Shown one piece after another: positions 9,816-46,071 of a DNA stretch of 63,009 bases (position 1 is the first letter of the stretch; each line of letters begins with the position of its first letter). A model generated the notes under the pieces. The model was not told the DNA's origin, did not search any database, and saw only the letters and a program-made list of their open reading frames with translations. The position numbers were made by a program, and so were the translations under genes. This DNA is from Vicinamibacteria bacterium (lineage in GTDB: Bacteria > Acidobacteriota > Vicinamibacteria > Fen-336): positions 1 through 63,009 of the forward strand of contig DATECU010000322.1 of the NCBI GenBank assembly GCA_035286745.1. The letters are read 5' to 3'.

Positions 9816-9823
9816 ACACGAAG

Positions 9824-9970
9824 AAACCACAGAGGCACAGAGACACAGAGGGAATGGAGAGAACGTCGCTGGGTCCCGCTTCGCTGTTTCCTGAGCGGCG
9901 GCGACTCGCGAGCAACTCCCTCCTCTCGTGCTTCTCCATTGCTTCCGTGCCTCTGTGTCTCTGTGGTTGC
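9824..9970. repeat. family A inverted-repeat element filling the hemB-hemL spacer
   Basis: The left arm is aaaccacagaggcacagagacacagagggaatggagagaacg (9824-9865). The right arm is cgtgcttctccattgcttccgtgcctctgtgtctctgtggttgc (9927-9970). The arms are imperfect reverse complements, and the core contains gcgactcgcgagc. Confidence 0.8.
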
Positions 9971-9985
9971 TCTCGCTGATTGGCC

Positions 9986-13700: not shown

Positions 13701-13716
13701 GGTCGGTGGTGGCGTG

Positions 13717-14781
13717 TTAGGCGAGCGCCGGTTGTGGGGCCAGGGCAGGCCGTCTCAGCTGGAGCTGGCCACAGGCGGCCAGGATGTCGCGGCCACGAGG
13801 CCTGCGCACGGACACCGTCAACTGGGCCGCCGCCAGGATGCGACAGAACTCGTCGATGGCCTCGGCGGTGGGGGGCTCGAAGGGGATCTCGGGGGCGGGG
13901 TTCAGCGGAATCAGGTTGATCTTGCACCGGGTATCCCGGAGCAGCCGCACCAGCTCCCGAGCCTGAGCCGGACCGTCGTTGACCCCTCGCAGCAGGACGT
14001 ACTCGAAGGTCACCATCCCGCCCCGGGGAATGGGATACCGCCGGGCGGCGGCGATTACCTCCGGCAGCGGGTACTTGGCCTCGATGGGCATCAGGCGCTC
14101 CCGCAGCGCATCGTTAGACGCGTGCAGACTAATGGCCAGGTTGGGGCGGACCGGTTCCGTCATCAGCTTCTCCAGGGCGGGCAGGATGCCTACCGTGGAC
14201 AGGGTGAGCTTCTTGGGAGCCACCGCGAAGCCCTCCGGGTCCATCAGGATCCGGAGCGCGGCCACCGTGGCCTGGTAGTTGAGGAGCGGCTCGCCCATGC
14301 CCATCACCACCAGGTTCCACCCGCGCCGGCTTGGCGGGGCCTCGTCCATGACCGTGGCCACCTGGCCCAGGATCTCCCAGGTCTTCAGGTTGCGCCGGTA
14401 GCCGCCGATGCCGGTCAGGCAGAAGGCGCACTGGAGTGGGCAGCCGGCCTGGGTGGAGATGCAGAGGGTGCGGCGCTCTTCTTCGGGGATAAAGACGGCC
14501 TCGATGCTAGCACCGTCGTCGAGGCGAAACAGGTACTTGATGGTGCCATCCGACGAATGGGCGCGCTCGGCCACCTGGGGCCAGCGCAGATCGAAACCCG
14601 CAGCCAGCGCTTGGCGCATGGGTTTGGCCAGGTCGGTCATGGCCTCGAAGCTCCCAGCCCGCCGGCGATAGAGCCACGAGTACACCTGCCGGGCGCGGTA
14701 CGCTGGCTCCGCCAGCGAGGCCACGGCGGCCCCGATCTCGGCCCCGTCCAGTCCGAACAGGTTGGGACGCGCCTGCTTCAT
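13717..14781 (-). CDS. rlmN: 23S rRNA/tRNA (adenine-C2)-methyltransferase RlmN
   Basis: 354 aa starting MKQARPNLFG. Radical-SAM cluster motif GCPLQCAFCLTG, MGMGEPLLNY, and the C-terminal catalytic Cys context DILAACGQL. ATG 14781 overlaps the upstream stop (ATGA). The 933-aa track ORF is a fusion artefact. Confidence 0.92.
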   Translation of the reverse strand: MKQARPNLFGLDGAEIGAAVASLAEPAYRARQVYSWLYRRRAGSFEAMTDLAKPMRQALAAGFDLRWPQVAERAHSSDGTIKYLFRLDDGASIEAVFIPEEERRTLCISTQAGCPLQCAFCLTGIGGYRRNLKTWEILGQVATVMDEAPPSRRGWNLVVMGMGEPLLNYQATVAALRILMDPEGFAVAPKKLTLSTVGILPALEKLMTEPVRPNLAISLHASNDALRERLMPIEAKYPLPEVIAAARRYPIPRGGMVTFEYVLLRGVNDGPAQARELVRLLRDTRCKINLIPLNPAPEIPFEPPTAEAIDEFCRILAAAQLTVSVRRPRGRDILAACGQLQLRRPALAPQPALA

Positions 14782-16594: not shown

Positions 16595-17020
16595 ATGCTG
16601 AAGCTGGAGGTGAAGGTCGAGGGAGAGGGCCTGCTCCCCGAGTACGCCACCGCGGGGGCGGCGGGAGCGGACTTGCGGGCCAGCGAGGCGGTGCTGCTGG
16701 CCCCCGGCGAGCGGGCTGCGGTACCGACCGGGCTCAGGATCGAGATCCCGGCCGGCCACGTGGGCCTGGTGTGGCCGCGGAGCGGCCTGGCGGTGCGGCA
16801 CGGCATCGATACCCTGGCGGGTGTGATCGACGCCGACTACCGCGGCGAGGTGAGGGTGGTGCTGGTGAACCACGGCCGCGAGCCCTTCGGCATCGTGGCC
16901 GGAGACCGGATCGCCCAACTGCTGGTGCAACGCGTGGAACGCCCGGACTTCCTGCGGACCCTGGGGCTGGGCGAAACCCACCGCGGCGAAGCGGGATTCG
17001 GGTCCACCGGGGTGGCATGA
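16595..17020 (+). CDS. dut: dUTP diphosphatase
   Basis: 141 aa. AGADL, GLVWPRSGLA, GVIDADYRGEV and a C-terminal GFGSTG motif. ATG 16595 chosen (MLKLEVKVEG). Confidence 0.92.
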   Translation: MLKLEVKVEGEGLLPEYATAGAAGADLRASEAVLLAPGERAAVPTGLRIEIPAGHVGLVWPRSGLAVRHGIDTLAGVIDADYRGEVRVVLVNHGREPFGIVAGDRIAQLLVQRVERPDFLRTLGLGETHRGEAGFGSTGVA

Positions 17021-17913
17021 GGTTCTGGCGCCTGGCCCTCCTGGCTGCGACCGTCGCCGGGTGTCGTTCGGCGGGGCCTATCACGGTCAACCTGGCCCCC
17101 GCTCGCGAAGCCCTCGAGGCGGCGCGCCAATCCGGGGCGCCTGAGAAAGCCCCCGACACCTTCAGTCGCGCGGAAAGCCAGCTCAAGGAGGCGGAACGTT
17201 TGACCGAAGCCCGGGCGCCGCATGCGGCGACCGAGGGCGTGCGCGCCGAGGGTACGGCGCGGTTGGCGCAGGCCGAGGCCCGCTGCGCCGGGGTCCGAGC
17301 CGAGGAACAACGGACTCAGGCCGAGAAGGGCACCCAGGAACAAGAACGCCTCGGCTCGCGGTTGCGGCGGGCCGAGGAGGACCACCGCCGGCTGGAGGAG
17401 CAGGTGACGCTCTTGAAGCGGGACCTGGAGGACACCGAAACCGAGGTGATCCGCACCAAGGCCCGTCTCAAGGGCATGGAGACCAAAGCCGAGGCGTCTT
17501 CCGCCATCGCCGAGGCCCGCATCCTGACCCGACGCCTCGATCCCAAGACCCGGGGGACGACCCTGACCCGTTGCCAGGAGCTTCTGACCAAGGCCGAGCA
17601 ACAGATGCAGAGCGACAACTTTGGAGCCGCCGTGTTCTTCGCTCTCAAGGCTCAGGACATGGCCGTGAAGGCCCGGGAAGCCCCACCGCCCCCGGGACGT
17701 GCTGAGGCTGCCGAGGAACGCCCGGCGGCCAAGGCCAACTACGTCGTGAAGGCCGGAAGCGTCAACCTGCGCCAAGGGCCGAGCACCGCAGAGGCGGTTG
17801 TCGCCAAGGTCGCCAAGGGCACCGTCCTGGGTGCCAGCGTTATGCGTGGGGAGTGGCTCAAGGTGAGCCACGGCGGCACCACCGGCTGGGTTCACCTGAG
17901 CCTGGTTGAGTGA
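17017..17913 (+). CDS. coiled-coil lipoprotein with C-terminal SH3b domain
   Basis: Starts MRFWRLALLAATVAGC (lipobox). Long E/R/A-rich helical region. The C-terminal stretch YVVKAGSVNLRQGPSTAEAVVAKVAKGTVL...GEWLKV...GWV is SH3_3-like. ATGA overlap with dut. Confidence 0.65.
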   Translation: MRFWRLALLAATVAGCRSAGPITVNLAPAREALEAARQSGAPEKAPDTFSRAESQLKEAERLTEARAPHAATEGVRAEGTARLAQAEARCAGVRAEEQRTQAEKGTQEQERLGSRLRRAEEDHRRLEEQVTLLKRDLEDTETEVIRTKARLKGMETKAEASSAIAEARILTRRLDPKTRGTTLTRCQELLTKAEQQMQSDNFGAAVFFALKAQDMAVKAREAPPPPGRAEAAEERPAAKANYVVKAGSVNLRQGPSTAEAVVAKVAKGTVLGASVMRGEWLKVSHGGTTGWVHLSLVE

Positions 17914-17928
17914 CCGCGGCGAACGGCT

Positions 17929-18027
17929 GCGATCAGCTATCAGCGGTCGGCTACGGCAGCGCCCGAGCCGGGAGAGCGGTCCGTGCTGGCGTTGTTGCCG
18001 TAGCTGAAAGCTGAGTGCTGATTGCTG
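17929..18027. repeat. family B (AGCTGA/GCTGATCGC-type) inverted repeat between convergent genes
   Basis: The left arm gcgatcagctatcagcggtcggctacggcag and the right arm ttgccgtagctgaaagctgagtgctgattgct are imperfect reverse complements. Related copies lie at 33533-33564 and 44827-44900. Confidence 0.7.
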
Positions 18028-18061
18028 CCACTGGGGGAGCCTCAAAGAACCCTGGGTGCCC

Positions 18062-19777
18062 TCACTCGCCAGCCCTGGTATCTTCGATCGCGGCGTCGCC
18101 GGCGGCAATCACCCGATCCCGGCCGCGGGCCTTGGCGGCGTAAAGGGCGGCGTCGGCCATGTCGATGAGGCCCCGGGCCACCCGACCGTCCTCCGGGAAG
18201 GTGGCGACCCCAATGGAGACCGTGGTGCGCCAGCCGAAGCGGCCTGGCCGCGCCAAACTCGCCACCGCCTGACGCACCTTCTCCGCCACCTTGAGCGCCT
18301 GGGCCTTGGGGCAGGAGGTGAGGAGCATGGCGAACTCCTCTCCCCCGTAGCGATAGGCGGAGTCGGTGCTGCGGACCGAGGCCAGGAGCTGGCCGGCCAC
18401 CCGCTTCAGTTCGTTGTCGCCCTCGGAGTGGCCCCACTTGTCGTTGAACTGCTTGAAGTGGTCGAGGTCCAGAAGCAGCAGGCTGAGCGACCAGCCTTCG
18501 CGCTCACCCCGCTGCATCTCCCGGTCCAGGGTGTCCTGGAAATGCCGGCGGTTGAAGAGGCCGGTGAGACCGTCGGTGATGGCCAGCTCCTCCAGGCGGC
18601 GGTTGGCCGACTTGAGCTCCTCGTTGCTCTTGGCTAGCTCGTCCCGCGCCTCTTCCAGCCGCACGCGGCCCTCCTGGATCCGCTCCGCCATCTCGTTGAA
18701 GGCCCGGGTCAGATCGGCGACTTCGTCGTGGCCGCGCACCGGCAGCCGGACCTCCAGCTCCCCAGCACTAACTCGTTTGGCGCCCGCGGATAGGAGCAGG
18801 ATGGGCCGCAGCATCTGCCGAGCGGCCAGGAAGGTCAGGGCGAAGACCACCACCACCATGGGGATGCCGAGCCGCAGCAGGCGGGTCCGGGAGTCGACCA
18901 GAGGCCGGTAGGCGGCGGCGGCGGGGACCAGGGCGGCCAGGTGCTCTCCCTCCAGGCGCCCCAGGCGGCGGACGCCGTAGACGGTAGGGCCCAAGCCGAC
19001 CAGGTTGCCCTCGGTGGCGGGTCCCAGCTCGGTGTTTTCGGGAGGCAGGGAGCCCGGGAACCTCTCGACGCCCGGCTGCTCCACCACCCGGCCTGCCTTC
19101 ACCAGCAGCCGCCCCTTCTCGTCGAGCAGCCAGAAACTGGGCGCCAGCTCTCCCGGCGGCGTGCTCAGGAGCGATTCCAACTCGCGAAGATCGACGCGCA
19201 GGACGAGGTAACCAAGCGTCGTGTCAAGCCGGCTTTGGATGGGGCTCAGGATCAGCAGGGTCGGGCGACCCAGGTACTCGGAGTGAAAGAGCGGACTTAG
19301 CCGGGGGTCGCGAAGGGGTGGACCGCTGGTGATCGCCGCTCGGCCCCAGGCTTCGAGCCGCTCGTCGCGCGTCCCCGAAACCACCTCACCCGTTAGATCG
19401 ACGATGAAGAGCGACTCATAGACCTGGTAGTGGCCGAGCACCGACTCCAGGTAGTCCCGCAGGTCCAGGCGGATGCGATCCACCTCGGCGCCCTTGCGGG
19501 TCAGCGACTCGACGCCCTCGAAGACGATGAACGATGCGGCCCAGCGCGAGGCTTCGCGGTGCCGTTCCAGGACCCACTCGTCGACCTCGGTGGTCCTTCG
19601 AAACAGGTGGTTGGAGATGGTCTCCCGGACCTTCTCACCCAGGATCTCCTCGTTGCGCTGCAAGAGGTAGATCCCCATGCCCAACACGGGAGCCACCACG
19701 CAGAGCAGAACCACGACCAAGAGCTTGGTGCGCAAGCTCTCGCGAAGGGCAGCGTAACCTCGTCCCCGCTCGGGCAT
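18062..19777 (-). CDS. sensor-domain diguanylate cyclase (TM-periplasmic sensor-HAMP-GGDEF)
   Basis: 571 aa. N-terminal TM, about 270-aa extracytoplasmic domain, second TM, HAMP, coiled coil, then a GGDEF domain with active site YRYGGEEFAML. Confidence 0.88.
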   Translation of the reverse strand: MPERGRGYAALRESLRTKLLVVVLLCVVAPVLGMGIYLLQRNEEILGEKVRETISNHLFRRTTEVDEWVLERHREASRWAASFIVFEGVESLTRKGAEVDRIRLDLRDYLESVLGHYQVYESLFIVDLTGEVVSGTRDERLEAWGRAAITSGPPLRDPRLSPLFHSEYLGRPTLLILSPIQSRLDTTLGYLVLRVDLRELESLLSTPPGELAPSFWLLDEKGRLLVKAGRVVEQPGVERFPGSLPPENTELGPATEGNLVGLGPTVYGVRRLGRLEGEHLAALVPAAAAYRPLVDSRTRLLRLGIPMVVVVFALTFLAARQMLRPILLLSAGAKRVSAGELEVRLPVRGHDEVADLTRAFNEMAERIQEGRVRLEEARDELAKSNEELKSANRRLEELAITDGLTGLFNRRHFQDTLDREMQRGEREGWSLSLLLLDLDHFKQFNDKWGHSEGDNELKRVAGQLLASVRSTDSAYRYGGEEFAMLLTSCPKAQALKVAEKVRQAVASLARPGRFGWRTTVSIGVATFPEDGRVARGLIDMADAALYAAKARGRDRVIAAGDAAIEDTRAGE

Positions 19778-26885: not shown

Positions 26886-27497
26886 TCACGGGTCGGCCCG
26901 CGGATCAGCGGGCCGGTTGGCGCCAAGCAGGCGGCAGACCTCGCGGTAGAGCTTGTCGAACGAGGGCGAGTTGGTACGAGCCTGCTCGAGATCGAAGAGG
27001 GCGCCCAAGGCTGGCTGGTCAGCGACCTCGGAGTAGGGTCGCTTCATCACCTTCGCCAGCCAGGCCTTGGCGCCACGAACGCCTTCGGCGTCCGGGGGTG
27101 GATCGACGTCTGGCGGGATTCCCCTTCGGCCTCGAAGGGAGTTCGCAGCGGCGAGATACCAAGCCTCCTTCTCGCGGTTGGCGATGACGACAGCCGAGGG
27201 CACGTCGCGTCGCGCCGCGCTGGCGCGTTGGGTGAGAGACGGACCGAGCCTGCAAGGAAGATCGTCATCGGCGTCGATCACGACCAGAATGGCCCCCGAT
27301 CCTCCCAGGCTCCGGGCAGCACGCTCGACCGCGCGCTCCAACTCGCCCGGCCTCACGATCGCATAACGTTGCACGCGAAAGGGCCCCACCAGCCGAGGCG
27401 CGTGAATCCCCTCGGCCTCGGCGATCCTGCGCACGATGAGAGGGATGCTCGCCACATCCCCCTGTCCCTCGACGATCAAGGCCAGCGAGGGTGTCAC
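26886..27497 (-). CDS. DUF4276-family protein (Toprim-like E...DxD signature)
   Basis: 203 aa. First strand LALIVEGQGDV (conserved Glu), ILVVIDADDD (DxD) and VVIANREKEAWYLA, matching my recollection of the DUF4276 pattern. GTG start overlaps the ATPase stop (GTGA). Confidence 0.6.
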   Translation of the reverse strand: MTPSLALIVEGQGDVASIPLIVRRIAEAEGIHAPRLVGPFRVQRYAIVRPGELERAVERAARSLGGSGAILVVIDADDDLPCRLGPSLTQRASAARRDVPSAVVIANREKEAWYLAAANSLRGRRGIPPDVDPPPDAEGVRGAKAWLAKVMKRPYSEVADQPALGALFDLEQARTNSPSFDKLYREVCRLLGANRPADPRADP

Positions 27498-28687
27498 TCG
27501 ACCTGGTCGCTGAAGAGCCTGAGCTGCTTGAGGTTCTGCTCCACCAGGTCGCGGTCCGGTTCGATGGAGCCTTGTGACAGCAGCTCGCCCGCCGCATAGA
27601 GCCGGTCGCGAAGAACCGACCGGGTGGCGGCATCCACCCGGCCCACCACCGTCGCCCCACCCTCGGCGGTGACCGCGAGGAGATGCTCTTCACGGATGGC
27701 CTTGTGGTTGAGCAGGTCGGGAGAGTGCGTCGTGGCCAGGACCTGGACCCGGTCGCTGGCCACGAGCAGGACCTCGGCCATGACCTCGGCGGCTCCCGGA
27801 TGCAAGGCCATCTCGGGCTCTTCGATCCCGACCAGAGAGACCCGGCGCTGTCCATTCAGCTCGGACTGAAACGCGGCCACCAGAATGCCCAGGGATCTCA
27901 GGGTGCCATCCGACATGTCCGCGGCCAGGAACCGCCAGGGGCTGGGATCGCCAGCCATCTCCTGGCGGAACTCCAGGGTCTCCTTCGGTCCGAGCGTCTT
28001 GTGCCCGACCGACACCACTCCGGGAACCACCGCCCTCAAGTGCTCTGCGATCGTCCGCAGCGGGCGGCCCTCTTCAAGACGCCCCAGCTCGCGAACCACG
28101 GCCGCCAGGTTCCTGCCGTCCCGCGCCAGCATCTGGCCGGGATCGGGCTCTTGCAGGTCCCGGATTCGCTCGGGATTCAGGTTGTAGAAGCTCATCCGCC
28201 GCAGGCTCTCGTACAGAGGTCTGAACTCCGGAAGCCCCGAGATGGCGACCAGAGCCAAACGATCCCGCTCCAACGCAGTCGGCAGGGTTCGCGAGGCCTC
28301 TTCGATGTGGCCCTCCCGGACCACGAAGAACTCGGCACCGACTCTGCACTCCTCCCGTTGGACCACGAAGGCCCCGTCTCGTTCGGCGCCCACCCTGAAG
28401 CTGTAGGAGGCCGAGCGTCCGTCCCCCAGAGCTAGGTCAAGTCGTATGCCAAAGTGCGTGGGATGCCCCCGGGATCGTCGTCGGACGGACTGGATTCCTC
28501 CCCGGTCGCGCAGTGCCTGCTCCAGCGTGGTGTTGAGACCGTCGGCCACGAACCTGAGCGCGTCGAGGAAGTTGCTCTTGCCGGAACCGTTGGGTCCCAC
28601 CAAGAAGGTCAGCGGCCCCAGCTCCACTCGGCACCGAGCTATGCTCTTGTAGTTCGTGATGGAGACGGCACTGAGAAGGGGCGGCAT
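27494..28687 (-). CDS. ABC-type (AAA_15/AAA_21, RecF/OLD-like) ATPase
   Basis: 397 aa. ITNYKSI...LGPLTFLVGPNGSGKSNFLDALRF (Walker A), signature-like MSDGTLRSLGIL, Walker B/D-loop LVGIEEPEMALHP and H-loop ATTHSPDLL. Confidence 0.8.
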   Translation of the reverse strand: MPPLLSAVSITNYKSIARCRVELGPLTFLVGPNGSGKSNFLDALRFVADGLNTTLEQALRDRGGIQSVRRRSRGHPTHFGIRLDLALGDGRSASYSFRVGAERDGAFVVQREECRVGAEFFVVREGHIEEASRTLPTALERDRLALVAISGLPEFRPLYESLRRMSFYNLNPERIRDLQEPDPGQMLARDGRNLAAVVRELGRLEEGRPLRTIAEHLRAVVPGVVSVGHKTLGPKETLEFRQEMAGDPSPWRFLAADMSDGTLRSLGILVAAFQSELNGQRRVSLVGIEEPEMALHPGAAEVMAEVLLVASDRVQVLATTHSPDLLNHKAIREEHLLAVTAEGGATVVGRVDAATRSVLRDRLYAAGELLSQGSIEPDRDLVEQNLKQLRLFSDQVE

Positions 28688-30535: not shown

Positions 30536-31498
30536 TCAGGAGGAGTGGCTGCCCTCCAGCAAGGCGGCGGCCAGCAGCGGCACCAGCAGCTCGTGATGGC
30601 CGGTCAGACTGTAGCCGCGACCCACGCCGCGGGTGGGTCGCTGGACCACGTTGGTCAGCGGCCGGTAGGACTGGATGAAGTCGAGGTTGGCGGTCGCAAA
30701 GTCGCGGAGGTCGTGGCCCAGGTTGCGAGCCAGGGTGACCGCCTTCAGGAACACCTCGGGCAGAAGCACCGCCGAGCCCACGTTCAGATAGACCCCGCCG
30801 CCGCCCAGCTCGGCCACCTGGGCCGCGAAAAGGCGGAAGTCCAGATGGCTGGAGCGGCCTAACGCAGCGGGATCGCAGGCCGGGTGCAAGTGAACGATGT
30901 CGGTGCCTATCGCCACGTGAACGGTGGCGGGCAACCCCAATCGGTAGGCGGCGCCCAAAAGGCTGACACCAAGGTGCGGCGACGCCGTCTGCACCAGATG
31001 GCGCCCCACTGCCGCCCCCAGGCCCAGGCCGTCCCGATCGCCATCGGCCACCGCCCGGTTGATCCCCTCCCCCGTCTCCCGGGCCATGCCGAACTCGCCC
31101 GAGCCCAGGGTTTCGGCCACCTCCTCGGAGGTCTGCCCCGCCACGGCCAGCTCGAAGTCGTGGACCACGCCGGCGCCGTTCAGGGCGATGCCGGTGACCA
31201 GGCCCTTCTCCATCAAGTCGATCAGCACCGGCGACAAGCCGACCTTGAGGACGTGCCCGCCCAGGCCCCAGAGAATCGGCTTCCCGCGCTCTCTGGCCCG
31301 CAGGATCTCCTGGACCAAGGCGCGCAGGGAGTCCCCAGCCAGGATCCTGGGGAGCGAGTCCAGAAACGCCGCCAGTCCGGTGCCGGGGAGGTGGGGCCGG
31401 GCGAACTGGGCCAGCGTGACCTTGCTCTTGCGTCCGGCCAAAGGGTAGGTGCGGATCCGGTCGAGCTCCAGGGGGCGGGGCGGCTTGCCGGGCTTCAC
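30536..31498 (-). CDS. deoxyhypusine-synthase-like protein (tentative)
   Basis: About 320 aa. GKPILWGLGGHVLKVGLSPVLIDLMEKGLVTGIALNGAGVVHDFE and the C-terminal ELLVPLLAAALLEG resemble DHS-family blocks (TTAGGVEEDxIK; LVFPLLVA). GTG 31498 overlaps the gmhA stop (GTGA). Confidence 0.4.
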   Translation of the reverse strand: MKPGKPPRPLELDRIRTYPLAGRKSKVTLAQFARPHLPGTGLAAFLDSLPRILAGDSLRALVQEILRARERGKPILWGLGGHVLKVGLSPVLIDLMEKGLVTGIALNGAGVVHDFELAVAGQTSEEVAETLGSGEFGMARETGEGINRAVADGDRDGLGLGAAVGRHLVQTASPHLGVSLLGAAYRLGLPATVHVAIGTDIVHLHPACDPAALGRSSHLDFRLFAAQVAELGGGGVYLNVGSAVLLPEVFLKAVTLARNLGHDLRDFATANLDFIQSYRPLTNVVQRPTRGVGRGYSLTGHHELLVPLLAAALLEGSHSS

Positions 31499-32067
31499 GC
31501 CGTGACCGCCTCTTCCACCATCTGGCACAGCAGGTGGATCACCATGCCGTGCACCTCCTGGATGCGGGGGGTGGCCGGGTGGGGGACATCGATCAGGTAG
31601 TCCACGAGACCCGGCAGCTCGCCCCCACCGGCCCCGGTCAACCCCACGGTGACCAGACCTCGCTCCCGGGCCAGCCGCAGGGCGGAGATGACGTTAGGGG
31701 AACGGCCAGAGGTGCTGATGCCAAACGCAACATCCCCAGGCCGGCCGTGGGCCTCCACTTGCCGGCGGAAGACCGCGTCGTAGCCGAGATCGTTGGCCAC
31801 CGCGGTGATCACCGAGGGGTCGGTGGTGAGGGCCAGGGCGGGCAGGGCCGCCCGGTCCCGGAGGAAGCGGCCCAGGAGTTCTCCGGCCAGGTGTTGGGCA
31901 TCGGCGGCCGAGCCCCCGTTGCCGAAGCAGAGGATCTTGCCGCCGGCGCGCAAGCAGCTCGCGAGCCGCTCGCCCACCTCCAGCAGCAGCCGCGCGTTCT
32001 CCCGGAAGAAGCGGTCCTTGAGGGCAATGCTCTCCGCGGCGATGGCCCTCAGGGTTTGCTCGTCCAT
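31495..32067 (-). CDS. gmhA: SIS-domain D-sedoheptulose-7-phosphate isomerase
   Basis: 190 aa. KILCFGNGGSAADAQHLAGEL, GISTSGRSPNV and the C-terminal QEVHGMVIHLL pattern typical of GmhA/DiaA. Confidence 0.8.
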   Translation of the reverse strand: MDEQTLRAIAAESIALKDRFFRENARLLLEVGERLASCLRAGGKILCFGNGGSAADAQHLAGELLGRFLRDRAALPALALTTDPSVITAVANDLGYDAVFRRQVEAHGRPGDVAFGISTSGRSPNVISALRLARERGLVTVGLTGAGGGELPGLVDYLIDVPHPATPRIQEVHGMVIHLLCQMVEEAVTA

Positions 32068-35683: not shown

Positions 35684-36466
35684 TCATACCCCAGACTCGT
35701 CCGGGAGCACGCGCAGGGCCTCGTGGAGACGCCCTCGCCGATAGCCTTGGGGGTCGAGAACGGCTTCGGGGTAGCCGGTCTCCCGAACCGCCGACAGCAG
35801 CGCCTCTCGCAGCCCCTGGTCGCTCAGGCGGCCCATCTCGCCGCCGGCGATCTCGATCGAAGCCAGGTCGCCGCGATGGCGAACCCGGAACTCCCGGAAG
35901 CCCAGGGCGCGGACTCGGGCTTCCGCGGCCTCCACCCGGCCCAGAACCTCGGCGGTGACGGGGATGCCGAAGGCAACGCGTGAGGCCAGGCAGGGTGAAG
36001 CCGGCAGGTCCCAGGTCGGCAGTCCCAGGGCCCGGGAGAGGATCCGGACCTCCGCCTTGGCGAGACCAGCCTCGGCCAGCGGGCTGCGGACGCCGGCCTC
36101 CACCGCCGCCTGGTGGCCGGGCCGAACGTCGCTGAGATCGTCGGCGATGAGGCCATAAGCGACGCAGGCGTAGCCCTCGGCCTGGGCCAGCGGCAAAAGC
36201 CGCCGAAACAGCTCCGCCTTGCAGTGGTAGCAGCGGTCCGGGGCGTTTTGCACATAACGGTCAGCTTGCAGTTCGGCGGTGTTCAAGAAGCGGTGGGCGA
36301 AGCCGAAGTCGGCGGCCAGAGAAGCCGCCTGAGAGCGCTGGATCCCGGCCAGCGAGGCGGAGTCGGCGGTCACCGCCAGCGCCCGCGAGCCCAGCACCTG
36401 GTGCGCCCTGAGCGCCAGGTAGGCGCTGTCCACGCCCCCGCTGAAGGCGACCACCACCGAACCCAT
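35684..36466 (-). CDS. larE: PP-loop ATP pyrophosphatase, LarE/TIGR00268-like sulfur transferase
   Basis: [17 protein letters not shown]-loop and CYHCK motif. The start is uncertain. ATG 36466 is the first canonical start that does not overlap the lysW-like gene, and the track start at 36616 would overlap it by 94 nt. Confidence 0.6.
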
Positions 36467-36522
36467 CTCGCCCAGCAACAGGTCCAACGCCTGCTGCTTG
36501 GTCTCCGGATCGATCCTGGCGG

Positions 36523-36690
36523 CTACTCGTCCCAGTCGTCCTCCTGTTGTGCAGCCGGATCCAACTCCAGGGGGGAGAGCCCCACCACCTCGAGGTCCAC
36601 GCCGCATTCGGGACAACTGATCACCTCACCCTTGTCGACATCGAACTCGTCGATTTCGATGTCCGCCTCGCACTCGGGGCAGAGTGCCAT
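36523..36690 (-). CDS. lysW: LysW-like amino-group carrier zinc-ribbon protein
   Basis: Not in the ORF track (55 aa). MALCPECEADIEIDEFDVDKGEVISCPECGVDLEVVGLSPLELDPAAQQEDDWDE has CPxC...CPxC and an acidic C-terminal tail ending DWDE. GGGAGGTGG Shine-Dalgarno 5 nt upstream. Confidence 0.7.
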   Translation of the reverse strand: MALCPECEADIEIDEFDVDKGEVISCPECGVDLEVVGLSPLELDPAAQQEDDWDE

Positions 36691-36788: not shown

Positions 36789-38729
36789 CTAGCGGGTGCG
36801 GTAGCGGAAGCGCACCGTGGTCTCCTCGTCGATCACCAGCGGCCGCAGGAAGTGGAAGGAGGCCCCGGCCCTGGGCACGTCCACCCGCACCGGCAACACG
36901 CCGGCCACCCGCCGCTGCAAGTTGGCCACGTTCGAGGAGGGCGCCTGCGGGGCCACCTCATCCTTGCGCTTGCCGGGCTCCGCTGCGTTCACGGCCTGGT
37001 CGCGGGTCCGGTAGCTCCACTCGGTGGCCGACTGCCGGGTGTCGATCTGTGGCGCTTCAGCGTTGACGGTGATCGTTTCCTCCACGCCCGCCACCTTCAT
37101 GCCCGCTACCGTCAGGCCGAGGTCGGCCACCGCCATCCCCGGGATGGCGTTGCCCTCGAACTTCTTGACCTGGTACCGGTCGGGCAGGAACAGCTCCCAG
37201 GTGAGCAGGGTGATGGGGATGTCCAGGCGGGGCAGCTTGAGCTCGGCCTCCCCCTTCTTGGCGAAGGGGGTTCCCGGCTCCAGGTAGACAAACGACACCG
37301 CGTAAGGGCCGTTAGGCCGGAAGCCGGCCCTGAGCAGGGGCACCCGGGTCCCGTCCTCGCCCTGCACCGGCTTGGCGGGCTCGCCGGCCACCTCGGCCGA
37401 CACCAGGGTGGAACCGGCGGGCAGCGCGACCTTCAGGAAGGGCTGCGCGTGGTTGCGCACGGTGAGCGTGACCTCGGTCAACCGCCGGCCCTCGCTGGTG
37501 GCGAGCGTGGTCACCGCGGCACGCTCCGCCACCGCCGCCAGCACGGAGGCGCTGGGGAAGCGTTTGACGTCGAGCCGGAGGCCCGGTCCCTCGCCGGCCC
37601 GCCGGTGGTAGCGGAAAGCCGCCAGGATCGGCTCCTTGGCCAGCGAGCGCAGGGAGGGCGCGGCCTCGCTCGCATCCATGCGCCTCAGGGTGCCGCTCTC
37701 GGTGGCGGTGAGCTCCAGCGTGCCCACGCCCTCCACCGCGACCTCGCCGGTCTCGCGTTGGGCACCGGTGAGAGAGGCCACCGGCGCGTCCATGGGGTAG
37801 GAGCCGTCCGGCGTGGAGCGGGCCAGCCCGACCAGGAACTGATGCCGCCTGCTGCCGGGTTCGCGTACGGTGAGGGTCAGCAGGCCCGGGCGCTCGGATG
37901 CGGCGTCGAGGGTGGCCCCCGAAACCCCGGTGACCTCGAAGCCGCTCGGGATCTGCAGGTCGAAGGTCGCCGGCTCGCCGTCGAGCAGGGTTGCCTCGAC
38001 CAGGATCGCCATCTGCAAGTCGGCCTCGCCGACGGTCAGCAGCGTCTTCACGTCGGACAGGAACCGCACCTCACGGGGAGCCGCCGTGGTCGCGGTATCG
38101 CGGGCCGACCAGAAGAAGCGAGCGGCCCGACCCGGCTCCAGCGTGGCCTCCACCAGAGTCTTGCCGGCCGCAGTCGTGCGTTTGGTGATGAGGCCGGACT
38201 CGACCCGCACCTCGGCCTGCTCTCCCGGCAGTTCCAAGCTGGCGCGGGCGCTGCCCGCGGGCGGCACCGGTACTACGAAGGAGGCGCGACCGGGCTCCGA
38301 CACCACCGGGCCACCCCAGTCGAGGCTGACCGAGAAGGGCGCCGGACCGTTCAGGATTGCGGCGTGACTTCCGCCCTCGACGATCAGCGGCAACGTCTTG
38401 CCCTCCCGTCGCGCGTCCAGAACGGTGGCACCGCTGAACAAGGGCACCTTGGTGGCGCCGCTTTCAAACACCTCGCCGTCGAGGGTGACAACGCCGCGAG
38501 CGCCCTCGCCGGTGATCCGGAGCTTGAGATCCGCCCGGGAGAGAACGCTTGAGAGCGGCGGCGATTCGGGCCGCTTGGGGGGCCGGGCCGCGCGCTCCAC
38601 CAGCCGATCGTACTCGCCTAGCGGCAAGCTGACGGTTCCGGGAGGGGCCTGGGGCGGGCGCGGCTTTTCCTCGGCCGTGGAGAGGCTGGCGACCAGAGCG
38701 ACCGCGGTGATGGCAATCGGCCTCAGCAT
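36789..38729 (-). CDS. large secreted protein of unknown function (paralog 1)
   Basis: 646 aa. Signal peptide MLRPIAITAVALVASLSTA. Beta-rich and collinear with the upstream paralog. GGAGG Shine-Dalgarno, 10-nt gap from the paralog 2 stop. Confidence 0.75.
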   Translation of the reverse strand: MLRPIAITAVALVASLSTAEEKPRPPQAPPGTVSLPLGEYDRLVERAARPPKRPESPPLSSVLSRADLKLRITGEGARGVVTLDGEVFESGATKVPLFSGATVLDARREGKTLPLIVEGGSHAAILNGPAPFSVSLDWGGPVVSEPGRASFVVPVPPAGSARASLELPGEQAEVRVESGLITKRTTAAGKTLVEATLEPGRAARFFWSARDTATTAAPREVRFLSDVKTLLTVGEADLQMAILVEATLLDGEPATFDLQIPSGFEVTGVSGATLDAASERPGLLTLTVREPGSRRHQFLVGLARSTPDGSYPMDAPVASLTGAQRETGEVAVEGVGTLELTATESGTLRRMDASEAAPSLRSLAKEPILAAFRYHRRAGEGPGLRLDVKRFPSASVLAAVAERAAVTTLATSEGRRLTEVTLTVRNHAQPFLKVALPAGSTLVSAEVAGEPAKPVQGEDGTRVPLLRAGFRPNGPYAVSFVYLEPGTPFAKKGEAELKLPRLDIPITLLTWELFLPDRYQVKKFEGNAIPGMAVADLGLTVAGMKVAGVEETITVNAEAPQIDTRQSATEWSYRTRDQAVNAAEPGKRKDEVAPQAPSSNVANLQRRVAGVLPVRVDVPRAGASFHFLRPLVIDEETTVRFRYRTR

Positions 38730-38739
38730 GGCAGCCTCC

Positions 38740-40629
38740 TCACTTCCCCACGCGGGCGTAGGCGAACTCGATCACCGGAGCTTGACCCTCGGCGGTCAGC
38801 TCCGACACCAGGAACAGGCTGCGACCGACTTGGGGTACCGCCACCTGGACCGGGAGCGTCCCCGCCACCCGGTTGACCCGGCCCGACTTCTGGAAGCGGT
38901 CGACCAGGGCCTGAAGATCCGCCCCGGCCTTGTCCTCCTCTCGCGCCTTGGCCGCCGGTCGGTGCTCCAGGAGTCCTGCCTGGGACGCATAACTCACCTG
39001 CTCCCGAAGCGCGGCCGAGCTGGGTGGCTCCAGAGGCTGGACCCGGAACGCACCCGGCTGCGCCGCCAGCTTGAAGCGCGGCGAATGGTAGATCTCGAGC
39101 CCGCTGCGGTTGGCGGGCAGGTCGGCCGCCGGAAGCCCCACTCGTCCGCGCCCCTTGTCGGGCCAGCTCGCGCTCTTCTCGAAGTAGACGATCTCCACCG
39201 CGAAGGCGGGGGCCTCCTCGCCCACCCGGCTCTTGGTCAGGGGCAGGAGCAGAACGCCGTCGGAGGAGCGGCCCGGACGCACCGGCCGGCCGGCCACCGA
39301 GGCACTCCAGAGTGCCGCTCCCTCGGGCAGAGTGAGGCCCAGGAAGCTCTTGGCGTTGTTGCGCACCGCGTAACGCGCACGGATCAGGCACTTGCCCTCC
39401 TCGCTGAGGAGCGCCTGGTAGCGCGCCTCCTCCACCGCCGCCACCAACACCGCCTGGGGGGTGTAGCGCGAGACGGCGACGGTCAGGCCGCGAGGCGCCT
39501 TGCCGTCCTGAGGCCGAAAGCGGTAGGCGACCAGGGACGGCGAGTCGCGCCCGGCCACCGGATCGCCCAGATCCACCGGATCGGCGGTGTCGAGGCCCTT
39601 GGGCTGGGCCTCCTTGATCTCGCCCGCCCCCAGCACTTCCACCGCCACCCCGCCGGTTTCACGTTCGGCGGCCGGCAGCCGCAGAAGCGGCACCGGCAGA
39701 ACGCCGTCGCGTGGCGCCCGGCTTTCGCCCGTTACCACGAAAGCGGCCTCGCGTTCGGCGGGCTCCAGGAACTTGACCACCAGGCTGCCGGCCTTCTGAT
39801 CCCAGTCCCCCACCGCGGCACCGCTCACCTCGTTGACCACGAAGCCCTCGGGCACGGCCACGCTGACGGCGGCGGCGGCGCCCTGGATCACCTCCAGCCG
39901 TACGCTGGCGCTCAGCTGGGCTGCGTCCTCGCTCAAGCCCACCAGCTCGGTCACGCTGCCCCGGAAGCGCAACGCCTGGGTGGCCCGGCGTTCCTCCCGC
40001 TTGCGCCGCCAAGAGAAGGTGAGCGCTTCGCCGGAGCGGCCGTGGGCGAGAAAGCGCACGCCCTCGGCGGTCTCGGTCTTCTCGGCCAGAAGGCCGCCGG
40101 TCAGCCGGAGGTCGATCCCCTGCCGGGGCAGGCTCAAGGTCGCCCGTGACAGCGCGGCGGTGGAGGCCGGGAGACTGATCGTCTCGGTGCCCGCGGAAGA
40201 AGAGACCGGCACCGCCACCTCCAGGCTGAGGGTGGCGCGTCCCGGCTTCGAGAGCAAAACGTAAGGCGCGGACTCCCCCTTCCCGGGAGCGCCCTCCACC
40301 AGCGAGACCGGTCGGCCGTCCAGGCGCGCCTCACGCACCAAGAGGCCGTCCGGGATGGCCACCTTCACCCAGCCCTCCTTGAACACGTCGACGGTGACCC
40401 GGGCCTCGCCGCTGGCGGTCTCCGCCACCACCTTGAGGTCGTATTCGATGCGGGTGAAGGCGGCGTCGACGGGAGGGGGCGAGGGTTCGGGGTCTCGGGG
40501 ATAGGCTTTGCTGCGTAGCGCGCGGTAGTCCTCGACCGGGAGCACGACCCAGCCTTCGGAGCGCGGGGACTCCTGGGCCGAGACCGGGGAGGAGGCGAGG
40601 GCGGCGGCAAGGAGCAGGGCTCGTGTCAT
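38740..40629 (-). CDS. large secreted protein of unknown function (paralog 2)
   Basis: 629 aa from ATG 40629 (MTRALLLAAALASSPVSAQ, preceded by GGAGGTG). The TTG at 40689 in the track adds 20 non-signal residues. Collinear similarity to paralog 1 throughout. Confidence 0.75.
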   Translation of the reverse strand: MTRALLLAAALASSPVSAQESPRSEGWVVLPVEDYRALRSKAYPRDPEPSPPPVDAAFTRIEYDLKVVAETASGEARVTVDVFKEGWVKVAIPDGLLVREARLDGRPVSLVEGAPGKGESAPYVLLSKPGRATLSLEVAVPVSSSAGTETISLPASTAALSRATLSLPRQGIDLRLTGGLLAEKTETAEGVRFLAHGRSGEALTFSWRRKREERRATQALRFRGSVTELVGLSEDAAQLSASVRLEVIQGAAAAVSVAVPEGFVVNEVSGAAVGDWDQKAGSLVVKFLEPAEREAAFVVTGESRAPRDGVLPVPLLRLPAAERETGGVAVEVLGAGEIKEAQPKGLDTADPVDLGDPVAGRDSPSLVAYRFRPQDGKAPRGLTVAVSRYTPQAVLVAAVEEARYQALLSEEGKCLIRARYAVRNNAKSFLGLTLPEGAALWSASVAGRPVRPGRSSDGVLLLPLTKSRVGEEAPAFAVEIVYFEKSASWPDKGRGRVGLPAADLPANRSGLEIYHSPRFKLAAQPGAFRVQPLEPPSSAALREQVSYASQAGLLEHRPAAKAREEDKAGADLQALVDRFQKSGRVNRVAGTLPVQVAVPQVGRSLFLVSELTAEGQAPVIEFAYARVGK

Positions 40630-40768
40630 GGGCACCTCCGGGGGCACTGAGGGTTCCGACGCCGGAACCGTCGGGTCGGTTGCGGTCAAGAGTAACCCGC
40701 GAGGGGTACAGGCGGGGTAGGGAGGCTATTCCCGACAGGGGTCGGCAGTCGGCGGCCAGCGAGGTGTA

Positions 40769-42731: not shown

Positions 42732-43373
42732 ATGAAGAAGGCACTGCTTGTCATCGGGCTGGGTCTGGCCACTGCAACCACCGCTCACGCCCAGGAGAAG
42801 AAGCAACTGGGGCTCACCGCCCTGGTGGGCTGGGGCTCGAGCGGGGGCGAGTCGTCGATCGGGCTCCAATATCACGTTACCGAACGATTCGCCCTGCGAC
42901 CGACCTTCGGTTACGCCCGCATGGAGCAAGACATGGGCTGGGATAGCGGCGACTACCCGCCGCCGAACGCAGGCATGAGGCCCGCTTGCGGAGAATCCTG
43001 CCCGATCCAGCCGGTGATGCCGGATCTCGGCCAAACCACCTCCACCAGCTGGAACGCCGGACTGGCCGGCCTCGCCTACCTCTCCAAGAGGGACGGCTTC
43101 TCCAGCTACCTGGGGGCTTCGGGGGCCTACGGGCGACAGACCAGCGAAACACCCATCGTCCCCATGCGCAACGGCAGCGTCCGCTACTCGATGAAGGGGC
43201 ACCTCTGGACCTGGAGCGGCTTCTTCGGCATGCAGTACGCACCCGCAAAACGCTTCAGCCTGTTCGCGGAGGCGGGCCTCCGCTACGCGACCAGCGGGGG
43301 CGACCGGCGGGTCGACGCGTCGAGCGTCTCCACCTTCGGTGCCCACCTGGGGGCCATCTTCTACGTGAAGTAG
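42732..43373 (+). CDS. small outer-membrane beta-barrel protein
   Basis: 213 aa from ATG 42732. Signal peptide MKKALLVIGLGLATATTAHA and alternating beta-strand pattern. The 432-aa track ORF is an over-extension. Confidence 0.65.
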   Translation: MKKALLVIGLGLATATTAHAQEKKQLGLTALVGWGSSGGESSIGLQYHVTERFALRPTFGYARMEQDMGWDSGDYPPPNAGMRPACGESCPIQPVMPDLGQTTSTSWNAGLAGLAYLSKRDGFSSYLGASGAYGRQTSETPIVPMRNGSVRYSMKGHLWTWSGFFGMQYAPAKRFSLFAEAGLRYATSGGDRRVDASSVSTFGAHLGAIFYVK

Positions 43374-43455
43374 CGTCCCCAGGAGGGGAGCGGCGAGCCC
43401 GCTCGGGACCGGCGCTATACTGGCCGGGTTTGCTGTCCCTCTCTGGAGGAGTCCC

Positions 43456-43809
43456 TTGGCCACCATCACCGTCTACGTCAAGCCCACTTGAACCTCGTGC
43501 CGGAAGTCGGTCGACTTCCTGAGACAGAAGAAGGCCAGCTTCGAGGTGGTGGACCTTACCAGGGCTGCCCTGACCGCCGCCGAGATTGGCGCTCTTTGCA
43601 AGAAGCTGGGCGTCTCGCCCCGAGAGATCCTGCGCAGCAAGGATCCGGCGTTTGCCCAGCACGACCTCGGCTCAGGCGGGAAAACCGATACCCAGCTCTT
43701 GAAGCTGATGGCCGAGAACCCGGGACTGATCCAGCGTCCCATAATCGTGAGAGGCAGCAAGGCCGTGATCGCACGCCCGGCCGAGGCCGCCCTCGATCTG
43801 CTGAAGTGA
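43456..43809 (+). CDS. ArsC/Spx/YffB-family thioredoxin-fold protein with in-frame UGA (candidate selenocysteine, U-T-S-C motif)
   Basis: GGAGGAG is followed 5 nt later by TTG 43456. Translation gives (M)ATITVYVKPT-TGA(43489-43491)-TSCRKSVDFLRQKKASFEVVDL... and continues in frame into the 87-aa track ORF (QRPIIV motif near the C-terminus). The TGA sits where family members carry the nucleophilic Cys. Confidence 0.7.
43502..43519 (+). promoter_or_regulatory. SECIS-like hairpin (7-bp stem, GGUC loop) 10 nt downstream of the in-frame UGA
   Basis: GGAAGTC-GGTC-GACTTCC is a perfect stem. Its position and loop sequence resemble the upper stem-loop of E. coli fdhF SECIS. Confidence 0.6.
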
Positions 43810-43839
43810 AGCGCCTCTCGCTCGGCTGAAGGAGACCGG

Positions 43840-44799
43840 ATGCCGAAGAACAACCGCTACAAGGTCGTCATCCTGGGCTCGGGGCCCGCGGGCCTAACCG
43901 CGGCCATCTACGCCTCCCGCGCAAACCTGGAACCGTTAGTCGTGGAGGGAGGCGGGGGTGACGATCCCACCGACGTCCCCGGCGGCCAGCTCATGCTCAC
44001 CAGCGAGGTGGACAACTACCCCGGCTTCCCCGAGGGTATCCTGGGCCCCGAGCTGATGGAGCGGATGCGCAAGCAGGCCGAACGCTTCGGGACCGAGTTC
44101 GCTTCCGGGGTGCTGGTCGAGGCCAAGCTGGAGACGCGTCCTTTCACGCTGAGCTTCGGCGAAGGCAGCGTCGCCGCCGAGACCCTCATCATCGCCACCG
44201 GCGCCAAGGCCCGCTGGCTGAACCTGCCCGAAGAGCTGGAGTTCCGTACCAAGATCGGCGGCGTCTCTGCCTGCGCCACCTGCGACGGCTTCTTCTACAA
44301 GGGCAAGGAGGTGCTGGTGGTCGGCGGCGGCGACACCGCGCTGGAGGAAGCCCACTTTCTCACCAAGTTCGCAAGCAAGGTCACCGTAGTCCACCGGCGC
44401 GACGCCCTGCGCGCCTCCAAGATCATGCAGGACCGCGCCTTCCACAACCCCAAGGTCGCTTTTCTGTGGGATAGCGTGATCGAGAGGATCCTGGGCGGCC
44501 CGGGCAAGGGCGTCACCGGAGCCCTGGTGAAGAACCTGAAGACCGGGGCCGTGGGCGAGGTGGCGTGCGGGGGCATCTTCATGGCCATCGGCCACGAGCC
44601 TAACACCGTGCCCTTCCGCGGCAAGCTGGAGATGGACCCGGCCGGCTACCTGGTGACGAAGCCCGGCGCCACCGCCACCAGCGTGCCCGGCGTGTTTGCC
44701 GCCGGCGACGTGGCCGACCCCCATTATCGTCAGGCGGTCACCGCCGCCGGCAGCGGCTGCGCCGCCGCCATCGACGCCGAGCGGTTCCTGAGCCATTGA
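43840..44799 (+). CDS. trxB: thioredoxin-disulfide reductase
   Basis: 319 aa. FAD motif VVILGSGPAGLTAA, redox-active CATCDG and NADPH motif VVGGGDTALEEA. Confidence 0.96.
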   Translation: MPKNNRYKVVILGSGPAGLTAAIYASRANLEPLVVEGGGGDDPTDVPGGQLMLTSEVDNYPGFPEGILGPELMERMRKQAERFGTEFASGVLVEAKLETRPFTLSFGEGSVAAETLIIATGAKARWLNLPEELEFRTKIGGVSACATCDGFFYKGKEVLVVGGGDTALEEAHFLTKFASKVTVVHRRDALRASKIMQDRAFHNPKVAFLWDSVIERILGGPGKGVTGALVKNLKTGAVGEVACGGIFMAIGHEPNTVPFRGKLEMDPAGYLVTKPGATATSVPGVFAAGDVADPHYRQAVTAAGSGCAAAIDAERFLSH

Positions 44800-44826
44800 T
44801 GGCGAGCTGGCAACCCTCGCCGATTC

Positions 44827-44900
44827 GGCGGGCAGCGGTCGGGGGTCAGCAACGGAACAGCCGGACTTGGCTGAGCGCTGAGAGCTGATCGCCGACCGCT
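44827..44900. repeat. family B repeat copy in the trxB-GT4 spacer
   Basis: The stretch ggcgggcagcggtcgggggtcagcaacgg...ggctgagcgctgagagctgatcgccgaccgc shares cagcggtcgg and gctga.agctgatcgc blocks with 17929-18027 and 33533-33564. Confidence 0.6.
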
Positions 44901-44907
44901 TCGTTCC

Positions 44908-46071
44908 ATGCGCGTTCTCTTCCTCGCCCCTCAGCCGTTCTTCGAGGTTCGCGGCACGCCACTGGCTGTCCTGGCCATGGTGCGGGCGCTCAGCGAGCTG
45001 GGACATGCGGTCGACCTCCTCACCTACCCCCAGGGTGAGGACGTGGATGTCCCCGGCCTTCGCCATCGCCGCAGCCTGAAGCTACCGGTCGGTCGCGTGA
45101 AGGCCGGGCCGTCGCTGACCAAGCTGCTCCTGGACCTGCCGTTCATGCTTCAGGCCTACTGGCGCATGGCCACCGGCCGCTATGACGTCGTCCACGCGGT
45201 GGAAGAGGCGGCTCACGCGGCGGCGCCGCTGGCGCGGCTGCTGGGGCTGCCGCTCATCGTCGACGTCGACTCGTCGATTCCCGACCAGCTGCGCTACTCG
45301 GGGTTCGCCAGCCGAGGCCCGCTGCTGTGGGCCGCCGAGGTGCTTGAGCGCTATGCGCTGCGCCGAGCCGCCGCCGTGGTCACCGTGTGCACCAGCCTGA
45401 CGCAAGGGGTGAAGGCACGCGCGCCCGAGGCGTTGGTCTTCCAGATCGAGGACCCGCCGCTCGTGGATCCGAAACGGCCGCCACCAGACGAGGCGGTCGC
45501 GAAACTGCGGCAGAGCCTGGGTCTCGACGCGCGCCCCGTCATCCTCTACTCCGGGAACTTCGAGCCCTACCAGGGCGTTCCGCTCCTGGTCCAGGCAGCC
45601 GCCCAGGTTCCTGAGGCGCAGTTCCTGTTCATGGGCGGTGAAGCCTCGGAGATCGAGACCATGAGGGCTGGCGCCCGGGAGCTGGGAACCGGCGATCGGT
45701 GCTTCTTCTCGGGCAAGCGGTCGCCTAGCGAGCTACCGGTCTTCTTGGCGCTGGCGGCTCTGGTGGCTTCCCCGCGCTCCAAGGGCGAGAACACGCCGTT
45801 CAAGATCTACACCTACCTGGCCTCGGGCAAGCCCCTGATCGCCACCCGCATCCCCACCCACACCCAGCTCCTCGACGACAGCCTGGCCTTCCTGGTCGAG
45901 CCGACGGCCGGAGGCCTGGCCGGTGGCATTCGTCAGGCGCTAGCGAATCCGGCCGAGGCCGCCGCGCGTGCTTCGCGCAGCCTCGCGCTGATCGAACGGG
46001 CGTACAGTCCCGCCCGCCACCGCGACAAGGTCGAGCAAGCCTACGACACCATCGCCCGGCTGCTGCGATAG
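44908..46071 (+). CDS. GT-B glycosyltransferase, family 4
   Basis: 387 aa. N-terminal MRVLFLAPQPFFEVRGTPLA and a C-terminal Glycos_transf_1 region with the E-x7-E-like context (SKGENTPFKIYTYLASGKPLIAT). Confidence 0.85.
   Translation: MRVLFLAPQPFFEVRGTPLAVLAMVRALSELGHAVDLLTYPQGEDVDVPGLRHRRSLKLPVGRVKAGPSLTKLLLDLPFMLQAYWRMATGRYDVVHAVEEAAHAAAPLARLLGLPLIVDVDSSIPDQLRYSGFASRGPLLWAAEVLERYALRRAAAVVTVCTSLTQGVKARAPEALVFQIEDPPLVDPKRPPPDEAVAKLRQSLGLDARPVILYSGNFEPYQGVPLLVQAAAQVPEAQFLFMGGEASEIETMRAGARELGTGDRCFFSGKRSPSELPVFLALAALVASPRSKGENTPFKIYTYLASGKPLIATRIPTHTQLLDDSLAFLVEPTAGGLAGGIRQALANPAEAAARASRSLALIERAYSPARHRDKVEQAYDTIARLLR

Follow-up and report, generated by a model that had tools for sequence, protein, structure and literature searches.

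The window analysed here is the whole of a 63,009-bp contig from an NCBI MAG labelled Vicinamibacteria bacterium (Acidobacteriota). On its forward strand we identified a Shine-Dalgarno sequence followed by a TTG start codon and a reading frame that is interrupted once, at the twelfth codon, by a TGA (Table 1). From the TTG at 43456 the frame reads L-A-T-I-T-V-Y-V-K-P-T-[TGA]-T-S-C-R-K-S-V-D-F-L-R and remains open up to a second TGA at 43807-43809, which is an ordinary stop; the decoding of the first TGA therefore depends on its context. The TTG is aligned with the ATG or GTG start codons of relatives (e.g. M-A-D-V-T-V-F, M-S-E-I-V-V-Y). A hairpin with a perfect 7-bp stem begins 10 nt 3' of the first TGA, the distance from UGA to loop being 17 nt, and the ATG of trxB (43840), coding for a thioredoxin reductase, lies 30 nt past the stop of the interrupted gene. 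The original prediction had listed the ribosome-binding site, the TTG, the interrupted frame, the hairpin and the closely following trxB, and all of these are present in the sequence. A promoter and terminator scan of positions 43200-45000 returned no sites, including no terminator-like site between the interrupted gene and trxB, and the two genes are probably co-transcribed. The upstream neighbour (42732-43373, + strand) codes for a hypothetical protein of 213 aa (HLA79196.1) without any Pfam or NCBIfam match, and is kept beside the interrupted gene in the same-species contigs L001-L003.

Table 1. Coordinates of the features of the locus (positions in the window).
Feature	Position	Strand	Remarks
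Shine-Dalgarno sequence GGAGGAG	43445..43451	+	4 nt 5' of the TTG start; direct sequence reading
Full-length CDS, predicted ArsC-fold selenoprotein	43456..43809	+	117 residues, TTG start, predicted Sec at residue 12, stop TGA 43807-43809; translation
Predicted Sec codon UGA, residue 12	43489..43491	+	aligned with the catalytic Cys12 of ArsC
Cys15 codon TGC	43498..43500	+	completes the U-T-S-C redox motif; Cys invariant in Sec and Cys forms
Predicted bSECIS hairpin	43502..43519	+	5' arm 43502-43508 GGAAGUC, apical loop 43509-43512 GGUC, 3' arm 43513-43519 GACUUCC
87-aa ORF reported by gene callers	43546..43809	+	artefact: UGA read as stop
trxB Shine-Dalgarno sequence GAAGGAG	43828..43834	+	within the 30-nt spacer; direct sequence reading
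trxB, low-Mr thioredoxin-disulfide reductase (CATC active site)	43840..44799	+	TIGR01292 and Pfam Pyr_redox_2 matches

The interrupted gene is missed or shortened by standard annotation pipelines, as had been anticipated. The ORF list of the window agrees with the earlier statement that only the C-terminal 87 aa are reported, and the same 87-aa stump appears in the ENA, JGI and Logan calls, while at NCBI the proteins on either side are numbered consecutively (HLA79196.1 and HLA79197.1), no protein having been deposited for the gene itself. A protein search showed that the closest relatives (55-99% identity) are called as fragments of 84-95 aa, with starts that are scattered over many alignment columns and no conserved internal start. 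Two calls among the relatives are of a different kind. At L091:1439 (P0002), the JGI call reads the conserved TGA as Trp and yields a full-length protein of 118 aa that has W in the Sec column; the contig was apparently translated with a TGA=Trp code, and the W is most likely an artefact of gene calling. On the 592-kb contig of L161 (L161:10272-12494), trxB and a downstream glycosyltransferase gene are called as a single product of 740 aa, which is probably due to an assembly indel and not to a real fusion, the 3' end of trxB being frameshifted with respect to that of the window.

Family searches were carried out with the 117-residue protein, writing U as C. The protein matches the Pfam ArsC model (PF03960) with 53.2 bits against a cutoff of 24 over residues 7-112, and Glutaredoxin (PF00462) is also matched at the N-terminus. 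Its nearest solved relatives by sequence are arsenate reductases (PDB matches with E-values of 4e-16 to 2e-10), and a gapless alignment of residues 1-116 with E. coli R773 ArsC (1i9d) places the TGA on the catalytic Cys12. The three ArsC arginines R60, R94, and R107, aligned to 1i9d, are invariant in the homologue alignment, and all homologues of 116-118 aa read KPTC[TS]xC[RK] at the TGA column. The assignment of the TGA to the nucleophilic Cys position of ArsC/Spx/YffB proteins thus holds, as it corresponds to Cys12 of 1i9d and to the first Cys of the CxxC of homologues.

The DNA of homologues was taken from metagenomes and reference genomes, with further loci obtained by exact look-up; the metagenome scan was aimed at the truncated clade, and the scan of reference-genome contigs, which ranked uninterrupted Cys forms at the top, captured six TGA forms. 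The Cys12 codon is TGA in 37 loci (window included) corresponding to 31 distinct sequences, TGC or TGT in 89 distinct Cys forms, and never TAA or TAG, so that the proposed check for Cys or Sec at this column gave one or the other. Three loci added later (L161-L163) carry the same TGA and the same hairpin. On the 5' side of the TGA the amino acids are conserved although their codons vary synonymously, the invariant Pro at -2 using three codons, which indicates that translation begins at the aligned start and continues past the TGA. Purifying selection at the protein level is apparent on both sides of the TGA, with no frameshifts.

In a neighbour-joining tree, the window falls into one large Sec clade, within which are nested two small Cys groups that have kept the linkage to trxB and lost the hairpin. 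Isolated TGA forms, each with its own hairpin, are also found within Cys clades: Blastocatellia L014/L032, L023, Pyrinomonadaceae L052/L059, and L144. The distribution of these forms indicates independent switches to TGA in other lineages, each accompanied by a separate hairpin. Repeated exchange between Sec and Cys has been described for bacterial selenoproteins (PMC1794560), and our tree shows such a pattern. The TGA codons of the isolated forms lie at L014:10025, L032:10025, L023:9909, L052:10025, L059:10028, and L144:1366, and their hairpins are unlike that of the window. The hairpins of L052 and L059 lie ~30 nt 3' of the TGA, and those of L014 and L032 are weaker (-5 kcal/mol) and fall short of the energy criterion for bacterial SECIS (bSECIS) elements.

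The criteria proposed for bSECIS elements comprise a loop of 3-9 nt, an upper stem of 4-16 bp, a G in the first two loop positions, a distance from UGA to loop of 16-37 nt and an MFE of -7.5 kcal/mol or lower (PMC13188914). With its GGUC loop of 4 nt, stem of 7 bp, spacing of 17 nt and fold energy of -9.2 to -10.6 kcal/mol, the hairpin of the window falls within these limits, and so do 29 of the 31 TGA forms (94%) compared to 9 of the 89 Cys forms (10%). The window has a GC content of 69%, and of its 1222 TGA trinucleotides, 11 (0.9%) precede a perfect stem of 7 bp or more with bSECIS geometry; taken alone, the MFE limit (-7.5 or lower) lets through 45% of random TGA contexts. For the local fold of 66 nt, z is -0.43, which is not statistically unusual for a single sequence, and no SECIS-type match was obtained with Rfam at either gathering or permissive thresholds. 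Taken from the single sequence alone, the hairpin is only suggestive; it is the comparative data that make it decisive.

Because the hairpin is invariant in the main clade and classical covariation rests on few sequences, constraint was measured by synonymous-site statistics on 24 ungapped distinct sequences of the window's clade (24-25 members), having a mean nucleotide identity of 68.6% and a minimum of 57%. The 18 nt of the hairpin are 99.5% pairwise identical across these 24 sequences, against 68.6% for the remaining gene. Each of the six hairpin codons (CGG AAG TCG GTC GAC TTC) is represented by one single codon in 24/24 sequences (6/6), a situation found in none of the 27 codons for conserved, degenerate residues elsewhere (Fisher p = 9e-7). 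The sole substitution in the stem, GAC to GGC in L102, keeps the pair by turning U-A into U.G, at the cost of an Asp-to-Gly replacement. In L144, which belongs to another lineage, a hairpin at the same position is maintained via two double compensatory changes that specify a different peptide. Cys forms show no synonymous constraint at the hairpin codons (third-position entropy of 1.2-2.0 bits) and their fold is weaker, -5.5 kcal/mol versus -10.8 for TGA forms at similar GC. These data strongly support the hairpin as a putative bacterial SECIS under strong purifying selection at the nucleotide level, in TGA forms only.

The perfect hairpin had been noticed in the original prediction and likened to that of E. 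coli fdhF, described as having a GGUC loop and lying 11 nt after the UGA. This description is right, as the fdhF element has a GGUC loop, an upper stem that starts 11 nt after the UGA and a bulged U18 (PMC4489274). Like the SECIS of E. coli and Salmonella fdhF, the hairpin of the window lies inside the coding region just 3' of the UGA and has the identical apical loop, which in fdhF is important for function. It differs by its stem start (10 nt after the UGA versus 11) and loop start (17 nt versus 18), by its perfect 7-bp stem without the bulged U18, and by having no obvious extended lower helix.

Given the TGA at the catalytic Cys column, its recurrence among homologues and a hairpin constraint that is limited to TGA forms, the locus very probably represents an intact gene, paired with that of thioredoxin reductase, whose product would be a small redox protein of the ArsC fold containing selenocysteine, with the hairpin as the SECIS. 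The candidate selenoprotein with a U-x-x-C motif that was originally put forward is therefore supported by the conservation of the TGA and by the selection on the hairpin in TGA forms only. Translation would start at TTG 43456 and pass the UGA at 43489, in the catalytic-Cys column of the ArsC fold. By analogy with the established bacterial mechanism, SelB with GTP and Sec-tRNASec would bind the hairpin loop and deliver Sec to the A site. The predicted product is a thioredoxin-fold protein of 117 residues with U12-x-x-C15 at the start of helix 1. Less certainly, and going by fold and neighbourhood only, Sec12 would attack an oxidised substrate and a Sec12-Cys15 selenenylsulfide would form. The fold and the operon suggest that this bond may be re-reduced by NADPH electrons coming from TrxB, either directly or via thioredoxin. 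Direct reduction by TrxB takes place in the case of NrdH-redoxin.

The neighbouring TrxB passes TIGR01292 (367.2 bits, cutoff 343) and shows CATC in its translation. Most of the window's clade has trxB directly downstream; over all TGA forms, it follows (-4 to +67 nt) in 18 of the 32 loci with enough sequence, and ~40% of TGA-form loci are without an adjacent trxB; it adjoins 4 nested Cys forms versus 0/82 of the other Cys forms. Synteny with the window extends over ~10 kb in L161, and in a sister Sec subclade (L007, L106-L114, L162) the gene is set among unrelated housekeeping genes. The idea that the selenoprotein gene and trxB form one redox operon, already present in the original prediction, agrees with this conserved linkage.

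An arsenate reductase and an Spx-like regulator are the main alternatives for the function. Concerning the substrate, an oxyanion such as arsenate is possible, as R60, R94, and R107 are conserved, although there are no arsenic-resistance genes nearby. The selenoprotein could thus be a genuine arsenate reductase, that is a Sec version of the R773-type ArsC, a reading that we consider possible but rather unlikely. It would account for the conservation of Cys12 (as Sec) and of the three arginines, and for the fact that the best NCBIfam match is the arsC model TIGR00014, with 89.7 bits; moreover, Sec-containing arsenate reductases are a listed family (PMC13188914). However, this score stays under the curated cutoff of 106, the motif is UxxC where canonical ArsC has UxxS/CxxS, and we found no arsB, acr3, or arsR in the window or in any neighbourhood examined (L001, L007, L106-L114, L161, and L162). 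A Cys homologue from Nitrospira (P0077) scores 122 bits with the same model. In addition, by residue count, R60 and the RRP arginine are presumably also present in B. subtilis Spx, so these two would not discriminate ArsC from Spx.

Two further functions can be envisaged for a UxxC ArsC-fold selenoprotein next to trxB, both belonging to a proposal that we hold to be improbable: a dedicated selenium-based partner of TrxB (a Sec-redoxin replacing or supplementing thioredoxin), or an Spx-like redox sensor controlling trxB. If true, a Sec-redoxin would supply in trans the type of Sec centre that is part of the mammalian TrxR polypeptide itself (in cis), an Spx-like selenium sensor of trxB would be the first selenoprotein transcription factor, and under either reading the extreme invariance of the SECIS in this clade would reflect tight co-evolution with one SelB. 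In its specific form, where the selenoprotein is not a TrxB-coupled enzyme but an Spx-like regulator that senses redox state, binds RNA polymerase and switches on trxB, the second idea appears quite improbable. Spx activates trxA and trxB in Firmicutes, and the gene of the window adjoins trxB. The U-T-S-C-R-K motif matches the C-T-S-C-R-K of Spx, and Spx structures are matched at E ~1e-8. However, the Spx/MgsR model TIGR01617 gives 54.4 bits, under its cutoff of 75 even though a CxxC-type motif is present as UxxC, whereas the score with the ArsC model is higher; by sequence, arsenate reductases are the closest solved structures; the protein has no Spx C-terminal extension (117 residues versus ~131); and Spx is essentially a factor of Firmicutes.

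Neither the 63 kb of the window nor ~1.7 Mb of flanking DNA from the loci collected yielded selA, selB, selD, or tRNA-Sec. ARAGORN detected no tRNA-Sec, either in the window or among 33 loci of TGA forms, 20 of the larger ORFs of the window gave no Pfam match to SelA, SelB, or SelD, and a tblastn of approximate E. coli SelA/SelB/SelD probes against 1.69 Mb returned only weak SelD-like matches, in L066 and L041. The latter were dropped, the gene being judged from its sequence to be an AIRS-fold member that resembles ThiL (thiamine-monophosphate kinase) more than SelD. In these two loci (L066:8748-10342 and L041:~8980-10340, from Thermodesulfobacteriota and Dadabacteria MAGs) an ArsC-like gene with a single Cys (C-x-x-V) is divergent to the AIRS-fold gene. 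When the window was scanned twice for other genes interrupted by TGA, only ordinary stops came up, and no further selenoprotein gene was found in it. The phylum Acidobacteria has been recorded as containing selenoproteins (PMC1794560), and we found nothing relevant in the literature on Vicinamibacteria and selenocysteine.

The UGA might also be recoded, yet not to Sec, with Cys inserted via a SelB-delivered tRNASec-like tRNA-Cys or with a near-cognate read-through by Trp or Cys stimulated by the hairpin. In favour of such a reading, the Sec machinery was not observed in the window or in the fetched DNA, so that Sec is the predicted residue, and one JGI call does have W at this position (P0002/L091), most likely as the gene-caller artefact described above. 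We nevertheless consider it very improbable, because Sec is normally marked by just such a combination, a UGA at the catalytic Cys column and a SECIS-type hairpin whose GGUC loop contacts SelB, and because the stop codon of the gene is an ordinary TGA, which means that the code is not reassigned. To our knowledge, SelB-dependent insertion of Cys is rare.

That the functional product would be the 87-aa protein starting at GTG 43546, and that the preceding 11-codon ORF and the hairpin would act as an operon leader or attenuator, is extremely improbable. Gene callers do report this ORF, and a conserved 5' hairpin could be regulatory; however, three parts of the solved ArsC fold (residues 1-116), namely strand 1, the CxxC active site and helix 1, would be missing from the 87-aa product, the segment from the TGA to 43546 aligns residue by residue with Cys homologues, relatives share no conserved internal start, and Cys forms of the window's clade that share the trxB operon are without the hairpin. 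Finally, an ArsC-like pseudogene with a nonsense mutation and a chance hairpin, consistent with the absence of a deposited NCBI protein, with a fold that is not unusual for a single sequence and with the lack of Sec machinery in the window, appears effectively refuted by the comparative data, namely the same TGA in 31 distinct sequences of several lineages and never TAA/TAG, the absence of frameshifts with purifying selection on both sides of the TGA, and a hairpin that is invariant in TGA forms only. The TGA forms are not assembly artefacts of one sequence either, as this is excluded by their mutual identity of ~69%.

Elsewhere in the window, the left end of the contig (36-3475, - strand) shows the order CdaA (DAC domain), YbbR/CdaR and GlmM (phosphoglucosamine mutase type), which is that of the well-known c-di-AMP operon. 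On the same strand, positions 26886-28687 code for a 397-aa AAA_21/AAA_15 ATPase (AbiEii/OLD-like family, often found in defence systems) that has a 4-nt overlap with a partner ORF of 203 aa, and the pair may represent a two-gene defence module. Two adjacent ORFs of 646 and 649 aa (36789-40689, - strand) have a strong coding GC3 signal and no Pfam match, and no Pfam match was obtained either for ORFs 14778-16436 (552 aa), 30536-31528, and 35684-36616. Two stretches of ~1 kb each (13700-14778 and 17020-18062) are without any ORF passing the GC3-based gene map and could hold small genes, RNA genes, or interrupted genes.

Selenoproteins of the ArsC type are known since 2005 from the Sargasso Sea selenoproteome (PMC1088965), and the listed families include an arsenate reductase with UxxS and an arsenate reductase-like protein with UxxC (PMC13188914, PMC9312934). 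The literature thus agrees with the earlier remark that ArsC-like selenoproteins had already been predicted in metagenomic surveys and that the family is not new. Like the arsenate reductase selenoprotein of the Sargasso Sea (COG1393/TIGR00014), the protein of the window has an ArsC fold, a putative Sec at Cys12 and a bSECIS candidate directly downstream. It differs by its UxxC instead of UxxS motif and by its score below the TIGR00014 cutoff of 106, as well as by its origin in soil Acidobacteriota and not in marine plankton, and by its linkage to trxB instead of a stand-alone or ars context. The UxxC motif type is shared with NF041106, the 'ArsC family (seleno)protein' of the GOS survey and likewise a selenoprotein of the ArsC superfamily (PMC9312934, PMC13188914), but the score of 26.8 bits against a cutoff of 85 points to a distinct lineage within the superfamily. 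Spx and the Grx-like NrdH-redoxin are, like the protein of the window, small thioredoxin-fold proteins having an N-terminal CxxC-type motif and a functional tie to thioredoxin reductase; the window protein scores under both curated cutoffs, the match to NrdH being weak (22.8 bits). We know of no Sec-containing members of these two families. Sequence comparison thus provides good support for regarding the window's clade, which scores under the cutoffs of both TIGR00014 and NF041106, as a lineage that is new within a kind of selenoprotein described before.

What the clade adds to this kind is the trxB operon and the soil Acidobacteriota host. According to a 2026 review, ArsC-fold selenoproteins are to date without biochemical characterisation, and the pairing with trxB provides a testable hypothesis for the electron donor of such a protein. 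Our analysis also corrects an annotation error across a clade of soil Acidobacteriota (Vicinamibacteria and relatives), in which the gene is cut to 85-95 aa or omitted. The sequence set is useful for benchmarking how SECIS predictors perform at high GC, where 45% of TGAs pass if energy is the only criterion. More broadly, this one small gene family represents a clean natural experiment, in which Sec and Cys have replaced each other in both directions and the SECIS has been gained and lost, and a poorly known and mostly uncultured soil lineage very probably decodes selenocysteine.
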